Below are positions 61,448 to 63,254 of a stretch of DNA of 64,000 bases, one piece after another. Source of the DNA: an uncultured Gemmatimonadales bacterium (lineage in GTDB: Bacteria; Gemmatimonadota; Gemmatimonadetes; Gemmatimonadales; GWC2-71-9); contig CAWCFX010000001.1 of the NCBI GenBank assembly GCA_963795085.1, forward strand, positions 672,001 to 736,000, given 5' to 3'. Every line of letters begins with the position of its first letter. Within the stretch, counting starts at the first letter, position 1. The notes below the pieces were generated by a model. It was not told the DNA's origin. It ran no database searches and was given only the letters and a program-made list of their open reading frames with translations. A program made the position numbers and the translations under genes.

Positions 61448-61804
61448 CTACTTCACGTGCTTGTTCACCAGCTTGGTCATGTCGAACATGGACACCTTCG
61501 ACTTGCCGCCGAAGACCGCCTTGAGGTTCTCGTCGGCGTTGATCATGCGGCGCTCGCGGGAATCCTGGAGGCCTTTCCGCTTGATGTACTGCCACAGCTT
61601 CTTGGTGAGCTCGGTGCGGGGCAGCGGGGTGCTGCCGACCACCGGGGCGAGCAGGGCGTCCGGCTGCACCGGCCTCATGAAGGCCGCATTGGGTTTCCGC
61701 TTGCTCTTGGTCTTGGTGGCCTTCTTGGCCGCCTTGCGGCGGACCGGCTTCTTGGCGGACTTCTTGGCGGACTTCTTCGCGGCTTTCTTCTTTTTCGCGG
61801 CCAT
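61448..61804 (-). CDS. SWIB/MDM2-domain protein with Lys/Ala-rich histone-H1-like N-terminus
   Basis: MAAKKKKAAKKSAKK..; KPNAAFM..PRTELTKKLWQYIK..LQD..MINAD..VSMFDMTK. Confidence 0.92.
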   Translation of the reverse strand: MAAKKKKAAKKSAKKSAKKPVRRKAAKKATKTKSKRKPNAAFMRPVQPDALLAPVVGSTPLPRTELTKKLWQYIKRKGLQDSRERRMINADENLKAVFGGKSKVSMFDMTKLVNKHVK

Positions 61805-62117
61805 CGTTTTCTCCCTTGGTGAAGTGGCTGAAGAGCGGCTTTCCCTCTGGGACAACGGTCCTTCGCGACACCAAAGTACAACATTGTCCCCGGCGCGCCA
61901 ATAGCGAACCGCCCCGTTTCCCCTCTGAGAAGCGACCTTTTTCCCTCTTGGGGTGAGCCGGCTGTTCCGGAAAACGGGCCTGTCTCCCTCGGAAAACCAC
62001 TGTTTTTCCCTCTGGACAGAACCTCGGTTGACCGAACCCGCCGCCCGCCCGCCCTCTCGCGGGAACCCCGAAAATGGTATGTTTCTCCCCGTACCCCGCT
62101 CGACCCGAGGTGACCCT

Positions 62118-62681
62118 ATGAAAACCGAATTGGTGCTGGCGTTCGTCGCCGGTGCGCTGGCCCTGACTCCTCCCCTCGCCGCACAGGACAGCATTCCGCT
62201 GGCCGTCGGCACCAGGGCCCCCGACGTTGCGCTGGTGGGCGCCACCCGGGACGGCGTGCTGCCCGACTCGGTTCGCCTCAGCGACTTCCGCGACCAGACC
62301 GTGGTCATCGCCTTCTTCTACCGGGCCAGGAGCGGCGGCTGAACCGTCCAGATGAACGCGTACCGTGATCAGTACGCGACGCTGTTTAACGGTGGCCAGA
62401 AGGTCACCCTGCTGGCGGTGAGCGTGGATTCGGCCGGCGTCCTCGCCCAGTGGGCCCTGGAAAGCGGGTACCCCTTCCGCTTCCTGAGCGATCCCGAGGG
62501 GATCGCCGGGCGGGCCTTCGGGGCCTGGCACGCAGGGCGCCGGGTGGACAACCGCTCCCTCTTCGTGATCGGGCCCGACGGCGTCATTCAGCACCGGCAG
62601 ATCCCCTTCCGGGAGATCGATCCCGCCGCGTACCGCGAACTGGAAGCCGCCGTGGACCGGATCGCGGGAACCACCGACTAA
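62118..62681 (+). CDS. Secreted peroxiredoxin-like (AhpC/TSA, BCP-like) selenoprotein; TGA 62340-62342 read as Sec
   Basis: Two in-frame ORF halves join as FFYRARSGG-U-TVQM at the peroxidatic Cys position; GAGG RBS; signal peptide; downstream hairpin. Confidence 0.85.
62357..62378 (+). promoter_or_regulatory. Candidate bacterial SECIS element
   Basis: CGCGTAC-CGTGATCA-GTACGCG, 7-bp perfect stem starting 14 nt after the UGA, G at loop position 2. Confidence 0.65.
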
Positions 62682-62696
62682 CGGAGGACACTTCGG

Positions 62697-63254
62697 GTGC
62701 AACAGGTCAAAGGCAGCGTGCTCAAGTCGCGGCTGGGGTTCGTCCGGGAGCACTTCGGCGAGGCCGGGGTCGCCCGGGTGGTCGCCAGCCTGCCGGAGGA
62801 GGACCAGAAAGCGCTGAACATGGTTCTCACGGTCAAGTGGTATCCTTTCGAGCTGGGAAAGCGGCTCGATAACGCCATCGTCCAGGTGCTGGGTGGCGGC
62901 CTCCCCGCGTTCTTCGAGCGGCTCGGCGAGGCGTCCGCGGACAAGAACCTGGCCACTCTCCACCACGGGTTCCTCACCCAGGGGAAACCGCACCAGTTCC
63001 TGGCCAAGGCGCCCGCCATCTACGCGCTCTACTATGAAACCGGCCGCCGGGAGTACCAGCAGACCGGGCCCAGCGAAGGCGTGCTTACCACCTATGACGC
63101 GGAAACGTTCAGCACCGCCGATTGCCTGACGGTGATCGGGTGGTATCGGCGGGCCCTCCAGATGTGCGGGGCCGCCGCGGTGGACGTCGTGGAAGAGGAA
63201 TGCCGGGCCCGGGGCGGCGCGGTCTGCCGCTACCGGGTGCGCTGGAGCGGATGA
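62697..63254 (+). CDS. TIGR02265/DUF2378-like (V4R-related) protein
   Basis: VKGSVL, WYP, G..A..NL, IYALYYETG, EECRARGGAVCRYRVRW. Confidence 0.7.
   Translation: MQQVKGSVLKSRLGFVREHFGEAGVARVVASLPEEDQKALNMVLTVKWYPFELGKRLDNAIVQVLGGGLPAFFERLGEASADKNLATLHHGFLTQGKPHQFLAKAPAIYALYYETGRREYQQTGPSEGVLTTYDAETFSTADCLTVIGWYRRALQMCGAAAVDVVEEECRARGGAVCRYRVRWSG

Follow-up and report, generated by a model that had tools for sequence, protein, structure and literature searches.

The window analysed here is a stretch of 64,000 nucleotides (nt) from an uncultured Gemmatimonadales bacterium, corresponding to G000:C1:672001-736000 in a genome assembly of 3.9 Mb and 6 contigs. At 62118-62681 of its + strand lies a peroxiredoxin-like gene whose reading frame is crossed by one TGA, and this codon almost certainly specifies selenocysteine (Sec). 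Two open reading frames (ORFs) of the + strand, 61953-62342 and 62352-62681, share one frame and are divided by the single TGA at 62340-62342. When the TGA is translated as U, the ATG at 62118 opens a pre-protein of 187 residues. This layout had been put forward in an original prediction made from the letters of the DNA, and both the positions of the two ORFs and the length of the read-through product proved correct. The following features belong to the gene, with selenocysteine insertion sequence abbreviated as SECIS.

62107-62112, + strand: Shine-Dalgarno-like GAGGTG, 5 nt upstream of ATG 62118 (sequence inspection)
62118-62681, + strand: complete gene, encoding a pre-protein of 187 residues in which Sec is residue 75, and ending in TAA at 62679-62681 (read-through translation; Pfam AhpC-TSA, E = 3e-23)
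62118-62183, + strand: predicted signal peptide spanning residues 1-22 (MKTELVLAFVAGALALTPPLAA), probably cleaved before Gln23 (..-QDS) (inspection)
62319-62321, + strand: Tyr68 codon (TAC), in the place of the Pro of PxxxT/SxxC (alignment to Aeropyrum pernix Bcp and Mycobacterium tuberculosis AhpE)
62331-62333, + strand: Ser72 codon, the T/S of T/SxxU, Thr in most orthologues (alignment)
62340-62342, + strand: TGA, decoded as the peroxidatic residue, selenocysteine 75 (column shared by 36 of 41 relatives, TGC in Cys forms)
62357-62378, + strand: SECIS hairpin, CGCGTAC (62357-62363) pairing with GTACGCG (62372-62378) around the loop CGTGATCA (CGUGAUCA) at 62364-62371
62553-62555, + strand: codon of the active-site Arg146 (R123 in mature numbering), invariant in 44/44 and aligned with the Arg of Bcp and AhpE

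Conservation of the in-frame TGA

One alternative is that the gene is broken, its TGA being a true stop produced by mutation or sequencing error and its two halves a pseudogene. Public gene calls would agree with this, as the databases hold the gene just as C-terminal fragments of 106-112 residues, labelled 'peroxiredoxin' or 'redoxin domain-containing protein'; pipelines do split it, as had been foreseen. TGA is also an ordinary stop elsewhere in the window, where it ends 32 of the 61 long frames. Against a broken gene stands, first, independent sequence from metagenomes. Their contigs cover the gene in pieces only, and one of them (151 nt, run X3) matches 62213-62363 with 0 differences, reaching only 21 nt beyond the TGA, short of the 31 nt required of a bridging contig. 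A TGC or TGT at this place, which would have told against the original prediction, did not appear there.

The second argument comes from the relatives. We searched 41 genomes of the same order, belonging to three families, with a protein search that reads through stops, and the best match contained one TGA in 36 of them at identities of 44-75% (35 of 40 when the unpublished genome G018 is left out). In 40 loci cut out for a comparison by column, the TGA stood at the same column in all 36 TGA loci, and TGC stood there in four, namely in G010, in G037, in a distant match in G039 and in the paralogue of the genome itself. An alignment of this kind, expected to give either Cys or TGA at the column, had been proposed earlier, and it gave TGA in the 36 relatives and, wherever another one had an orthologue, TGC. 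The remaining relatives are G005, with an N-terminal piece at a contig end, and G028, with a distant paralogue only. The databases provide 84 further Cys forms with Cys at this column.

A wider sample of 151 genomes, evenly drawn from the phylum, gave an orthologue (E <= 1e-35) in 115 of them. TGA was present in 96 of the 122 matches and absent in 26; 93 genomes had the Sec form and 22 had Cys forms alone. With the protein of this gene as query, none of the 22 genomes sampled from families f8 to f12 yielded an orthologue. Such a recurrence at one column, in independent assemblies, speaks against a mutation or an error, and so does the protein-level conservation of the two halves, each of which has invariant residues. 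We consider a broken gene so improbable that it carries practically no weight.

Some genomes hold more than one copy. In G109 (G109:C19:42101-43206) two forms of the peroxiredoxin, one with Cys and one with Sec, are arranged in tandem with an overlap of a few bases. G077 and G161 have one Cys and one Sec form each, and G135, G160 and G163 have two Sec forms each.

The SECIS hairpin

The hairpin consists of a stem of 6-7 bp, which begins 15 nt after the UGA, and an 8-nt loop with G at loop positions 2 and 4. The 7-bp hairpin of the original prediction is recovered at exactly the same bases, 62357-62378. Bacterial SECIS elements are described as stem-loops that follow the UGA closely on its 3' side and have a G in their small apical loop (PMC1088965, PMC9312934). 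The region also encodes part of N-AYRDQYA. For the comparison we used 35 Sec-form orthologues that had been picked by protein similarity alone.

All 35 orthologues carry the same TGA followed by the same hairpin, and 20 consecutive bases of it (GCGTACCGTGATCAGTACGC) are identical in 35/35. The third positions are thereby frozen across GCG-TAC-CGT-GAT-CAG-TAC, including CGT, which makes up 6.4% of the Arg codons in the window's long frames with high G+C at third codon positions, and GAT, which makes up 32.5% of the Asp codons there. Six stem pairs are invariant. The seventh, closing pair links two third-codon positions and is CG in 24 sequences, GC in 8, AU in 1, UA in 1 and unpaired in 1, so that both sides have changed in 10 sequences while pairing was kept (covariation). 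Over both helices tested, 84% of the cells are paired in the 35 orthologues, compared with 9-43% when the partners are slid. A wider protein-based sample showed two synonymous loop variants, CGTGAC and CGGGAC, and an unaltered stem. The Cys forms encode the same or a similar peptide by CGG or CGC and GAC and have no such hairpin. Judged by this comparison, the hairpin is a SECIS element whose structure is kept beyond the needs of coding.

Scanning species genomes for the exact 20-mer returned at least 120 stretches, of which 80 loci were examined. In 80/80 a TGA lies 18 nt upstream with the same active-site motif. In this set, which is biased, the closing pair was GC in 22, CG in 20, TA in 12 and unpaired in 26 (A.A in 18). 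Because the closing pair is often unpaired, the core of the element is the 6-bp stem. The titles of the examined loci were nearly all Gemmatimonadales, Longimicrobiales or Gemmatimonadota, with one Phycisphaerae, one Acidobacteria and one uncultured bacterium; a record titled Gemmatimonas phototrophica (L081) is among those with the TGA form. The Phycisphaerae and Acidobacteria records, which have the exact hairpin and the TGA, are L090 on a 1.6-kb contig and L092 on a 43-kb contig, and they could be mis-binned contigs or cases of gene transfer.

Two further observations concern the same region. One Cys form, L184 (G062:C111; TGC, with Pro at -7), reads GCG TAC CGG GAC CAG TAC and retains a 5-bp remnant of the hairpin, as if it had only recently switched between Sec and Cys. 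In the spacer between UGA and hairpin (62343-62356, + strand), the Gln codon of ..Q-M.. is CAA in 31 of the 35 orthologues (CAA makes up 11% of the Gln codons of the window), and 'TGAAC' is invariant. This suggests that the spacer bases may also be under constraint.

Selenocysteine machinery and decoding of the TGA

The genome search that had been recommended for selA, selB, selC and selD found all four in the same genome, so that the SelB/SECIS machinery is present. The genome gave selA with 431.6 bits, selB with 313.9 bits (cut-off 242) and selD with 384.9 bits, the last containing one in-frame TGA of its own; the tRNA-Sec (selC) has the anticodon tca. The relatives provide a natural control. 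selA was detected in 39 of the 41, among them all 36 genomes with the TGA form. The two in which selA was not found are G037 (~100% complete), which has a Cys form, and G028 (~95% complete), which has no orthologue. The TGA form thus occurs only where selA was found, and this supports decoding as Sec.

It might still be supposed that the UGA is passed without Sec, by a near-cognate Trp or Cys tRNA, or that translation terminates there, the C-terminal half being a separate product started at ATG 62352. This ATG exists and is the start of the database fragment, and two database proteins have W at the TGA column, presumably by the code that the gene caller applied. However, no Shine-Dalgarno-like site was seen upstream of ATG 62352 by sequence inspection, and neither half alone would make a thioredoxin fold, since the modelled fold (below) runs across the TGA. 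Read-through by another tRNA would leave the hairpin, with its covariation and frozen synonymous sites, without a role, and it would not explain why the TGA form is confined to genomes in which selA was found. We regard both possibilities as very unlikely. As judged by the comparison of relatives, the in-frame TGA almost certainly encodes selenocysteine, and the two database fragments are one gene.

The selD gene (G000:C4:64282-65202, locus L010) is itself a selenoprotein gene, with its TGA in the motif GAGU-ACK. A GC-rich hairpin of 8 bp starts a few bases past this TGA, and its shape is unlike that of the peroxiredoxin SECIS.

Fold, active site and export of the protein

The protein matches Pfam AhpC-TSA (PF00578) with E = 3e-23 and 82.6 bits against a cut-off of 26, and Redoxin is also matched. 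Matches to NCBIfam were all below threshold; the equivalog PrxU (NF040737) reached 58.2 bits against a cut-off of 270, and consequently no curated model would let a pipeline read this TGA as Sec. By sequence, the best solved relatives are Bcp of A. pernix and AhpE of M. tuberculosis (E ~3e-10). We modelled the mature part with AlphaFold2 and obtained a predicted local distance difference test score (pLDDT) of 95.3. The best fold matches to the model are AhpE of M. tuberculosis, with a template modelling (TM) score of 0.82-0.90 and 27% identity, and Bcp4 of Sulfolobus. The strands and helices of the model extend from mature residue 16 to 160 and span the TGA, which is mature residue 52.

Ser72-Gly-Gly-Sec75 aligns with the S/T-x-x-C of Bcp and AhpE, so the TGA occupies the position of the peroxidatic Cys, as the original prediction had placed it. 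Its description of a peroxiredoxin-like protein of 1-Sec type also agrees with the AhpC-TSA match, the AhpE/BCP-type fold and the conserved Thr/Ser and Arg. The mature part contains no Cys, again as had been noticed. Each of the 116 Sec forms compared likewise lacks it, and the four Cys forms contain a single Cys. The enzyme accordingly has no resolving residue.

The N-terminus has a charged end, a hydrophobic core and an end of small residues, and no twin-arginine motif or lipobox was seen in it by inspection. The orthologues and the Cys homologues have an N-terminus of the same design, ending in ..A-x-A-Q. This looks like a signal peptide of the Sec-translocon type, and the protein is probably exported. 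From its sequence and modelled fold, the protein is a Cys-free 1-Sec peroxiredoxin of the AhpE/BCP type, presumably exported and presumably active as a peroxidase.

The missing active-site proline

In one respect the active site departs from the common pattern. In peroxiredoxins the residue seven positions ahead of the peroxidatic one is a conserved Pro, and here that position is Tyr68. The original prediction had noted the loss of the Pro and named Arg as its replacement; this has to be corrected, as the alignments place Tyr68 there and not Arg69. The Pro is described as conserved in Prx and Sec-Prx (PMC13188914, PMC3322552).

We counted the residues at this position in 143 rows, 133 of them distinct, leaving out the unpublished L040, the partial L033, L038 and L050, and database proteins of <=150 residues. 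The two database proteins with W at the Sec column were scored as Sec forms, as the gene caller had probably read their TGA as Trp. The Pro is kept in all 81 distinct Cys forms. The 52 distinct Sec forms have F in 24, Y in 23, P in 3, S in 1 and I in 1. The three Sec forms that keep the Pro are among those closest to Cys relatives, L046 being 80% identical to Cys forms. In a quick posterior mean site frequency (PMSF) tree the two traits require 11 changes between Sec and Cys and 10 between Pro and non-Pro; well-supported branches force only 3 changes. An independent-pairs test of the coupling gave 2.9 of 3 pairs in the same direction and 0 in the opposite one (p = 0.25, not significant). The coupling of Sec with the loss of Pro is therefore striking in the counts and suggestive, and repeated evolution is not yet demonstrated by it.

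The Tyr or Phe that replaces the Pro in 47 of the 52 distinct Sec forms might also mark a shift of function, such that the protein is a real exported selenoprotein and not a peroxidase, serving instead as redox relay or sensor, or reducing other oxidised envelope targets. There is a precedent in the peroxiredoxin-like PrxL of the Caulobacter envelope, for which peroxidase activity was undetectable (PMC3322552). On the other hand, the Thr/Ser, the Sec and the Arg are retained, the nearest folds are those of active peroxidases, and PxxxTxxC is complete in the close Cys forms, whose identity reaches 80%. We think that a function other than that of a peroxidase is unlikely.

Gene neighbourhood and the likely reductant

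A protein without a resolving residue would need an external reductant. The genes next to the peroxiredoxin gene serve as context only and are the following.

61448-61810, - strand: divergent upstream gene with SWIB/MDM2 domain (Pfam PF02201, E = 1.5e-25)
62697-63254, + strand: downstream gene with DUF2378, 15 nt past the stop (Pfam PF09536, E = 1.2e-5)

The DUF2378 gene adjoins the peroxiredoxin gene only within the same genus. A local redox partner was sought in the window and rejected, the neighbours being SWIB, DUF2378, thrC/thrB, an ABC-F ATPase and PntAB, none of them a redox protein.

The relatives offer a candidate. In G034 the Sec gene is tail to tail with an operon of a CcdA-type gene (DsbD_TM, E = 2e-45) and an exported TlpA-like gene (WCPLC; Redoxin, E = 9e-22). 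There is one TlpA-like gene per relative, and 39 of the 41 gave it at E <= 1e-20. In 15 of the 36 genomes with a Sec form, this gene and the Sec gene are placed tail to tail, no more than 150 nt apart; the distance is <=714 nt in one other genome and <=1.8 kb in another. Accordingly, 17 of 36 relatives have the operon of CcdA-type and TlpA-like genes within 2 kb of the Sec gene, or 16 of 35 without G018, which is one of the 15. In 11 other genomes, including this one, the TlpA-like gene directly precedes a paralogue of the peroxiredoxin that is exported and has Cys; in this genome the identity of the paralogue to the Sec form is 41% in the genome search and 38% in tblastn. A CcdA-type gene precedes the TlpA-like gene in 26 of 30 loci, and WCxxC is invariant in 28 TlpA-like sequences. 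From this gene neighbourhood, a TlpA-like thioredoxin fed by CcdA is the likely reductant.

In this genome the pair is located at G000:C3:318980-320067 (L207:887-1992, - strand) and consists of a TlpA-like protein of 167 residues (WCDVC; G000:C3:319567-320067) and a 1-Cys peroxiredoxin paralogue of 201 residues (PxxxTxxC), both exported. The two genes overlap by 4 bases and are downstream of ispG. Most relatives have a CcdA-type gene between ispG and the TlpA-like gene, which is missing here.

Proposed mechanism

We consider it highly probable that the locus is one gene for an exported selenocysteine peroxiredoxin, decoded by SelB and the SECIS element and most likely recycled by a TlpA-like thioredoxin. 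The comparison of relatives shows the decoding as Sec, the SECIS element, the fold and the catalytic residues, and from these and the gene neighbourhood the export, the peroxidase activity and the reductant are inferred. In decoding, SelB with the Sec-tRNA(Sec) would bind the hairpin and insert Sec at codon 75, and translation would continue to residue 187. The pre-protein would then pass through the Sec translocon and lose its signal peptide of ~22 residues. In the envelope, the selenolate of Sec75, placed by Ser72 and Arg146, may reduce H2O2 or organic hydroperoxides and be converted to the selenenic acid. As the mature protein has no Cys, it cannot recycle itself; the exported TlpA-like thioredoxin (WCxxC) might do so with electrons that come across the membrane from CcdA.

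Several points weigh against this explanation. The fold energy of the single 61-nt sequence is ordinary when compared with shuffled sequences (z = -0.78), and because a single sequence folds so unremarkably, the case for the hairpin rests on comparison. No Rfam family matched the hairpin in a search of 62000-62800 at E <= 10, where two chance matches to vertebrate long non-coding RNA (lncRNA) were all that appeared. A lower SECIS stem taken from the minimum-energy fold (62349-62354 with 62380-62384) had to be rejected, as 62% of its cells are paired in the 35 orthologues and no covariation was found. The signal peptide was recognized by inspection alone. A look for the stretch in RNA runs gave none that contains it. 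With the Pro absent from the active site, the chemistry could differ from that of other peroxiredoxins. The TlpA-like gene of this genome is on another contig than the Sec gene, and the dedicated CcdA beside it is missing; the only DsbD_TM match is a distant CcdA near a Fur-family gene on contig 6.

Relation to known systems

Sec-peroxiredoxins, as 'Prx' (PF00578 / COG1225, TxxU), have been a listed selenoprotein family since PrxU (PMC1088965, PMC2398784), the first member shown, which was found in Eubacterium acidaminophilum in 2001 (PMC1088965, PMC2398784, PMC13188914). They are abundant in marine metagenomes, with 43 sequences from the Sargasso Sea and 253 in Global Ocean Sampling (GOS) data (PMC1088965, PMC2398784). 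The protein resembles this family in its AhpC/TSA fold, its peroxidatic Sec in T/SxxU, its SECIS after the UGA and its common Cys homologues (PMC1088965, PMC2398784, PMC13188914). Judged by these features, the gene is of the known Prx (TxxU) kind and shows the features of the family except the Pro. The word 'hidden', which the original prediction applied to this selenoprotein, is thus right with respect to annotation pipelines and wrong with respect to its kind, as TxxU Sec-peroxiredoxins are established. Unlike PrxU, our protein falls below the equivalog cut-off, has a signal peptide and has no Cys; and unlike the 'PxxxTxxU' that a 2026 review calls highly conserved (PMC13188914), it lacks the Pro. 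The name Gemmatimonadota has 0 occurrences in that review. A full-text literature search found no description of the clade, which the supplementary tables of large surveys may list.

The protein also resembles AhpE of M. tuberculosis (PDB 1xxu, 1xvw, 4x0x; 1-Cys) and Bcp of A. pernix and Sulfolobus in that there is no resolving Cys and the Arg and Thr/Ser are aligned. In contrast to it, those proteins use Cys, keep the Pro and are cytoplasmic. For the pathway, the closest comparison is ScsB-TlpA-PprX of Caulobacter crescentus, the first envelope peroxide-reduction pathway described (PMC3322552). Like PprX, which is of BCP/PrxQ type (PMC3322552), our protein would be exported, and genes for an exported TlpA-like protein and a membrane electron transporter of the DsbD/CcdA superfamily adjoin its gene in many relatives. 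PprX differs in having a Cys with a resolving Cys and in receiving electrons from ScsB, not from CcdA (PMC3322552). The likeness of the two pathways is one of gene neighbourhood, and the genes lie apart in this genome.

What appears to be new is the Sec-linked loss of Pro and the conserved CcdA-TlpA-like neighbours. We would propose, tentatively and with doubt somewhat the stronger, that Gemmatimonadota carry out a selenium-dependent peroxide reduction in the envelope, from CcdA to the TlpA-like protein to the Cys-free Sec-peroxiredoxin, and that in this peroxiredoxin family the use of Sec co-evolved with the loss of Pro. If this were true, it would be a natural experiment in which Sec alters what a peroxiredoxin active site needs, at a Pro that is otherwise treated as universal. 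Sec and Cys forms that are up to ~80% identical and vary jointly at one further active-site residue would make the long-standing question of Sec's advantage over Cys testable. With the conserved CcdA-TlpA-like neighbours, a second pathway of peroxide reduction in the envelope, following that of PprX, would have a concrete reductant. The gene almost certainly encodes a selenium enzyme of a known kind, conserved across one class of soil bacteria, and public pipelines have cut it in two in well over a hundred species. Because it is split, both the envelope's antioxidant equipment and the selenium that a common soil phylum demands are under-counted.

Other observations

The motif TTYCCCTCT occurs in 4 copies in the 64-kb window against 0.65 expected, and all of them fall between the SWIB and peroxiredoxin genes (61840-62013, + strand), with looser copies at 61810 and 61983. 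The cluster is also found in the two relatives that share the upstream SWIB gene, L017 (3 copies) and L019 (1 copy). It could be the site of a regulator or an intergenic repeat of this genome.

Outside the window there is a second candidate selenoprotein of 405 residues, at G000:C1:918729-919946 (L206:1230-2444, + strand). It joins a peroxiredoxin domain (FYPGNDTPGU, with TGA in the place of the Cys) to a short-chain dehydrogenase domain and has no signal peptide. A simple fold gave no clear SECIS hairpin for it, and a search for a loop motif common to the SECIS elements of selD and this candidate gave none that was convincing. Many relatives show weak matches with one TGA to this region.

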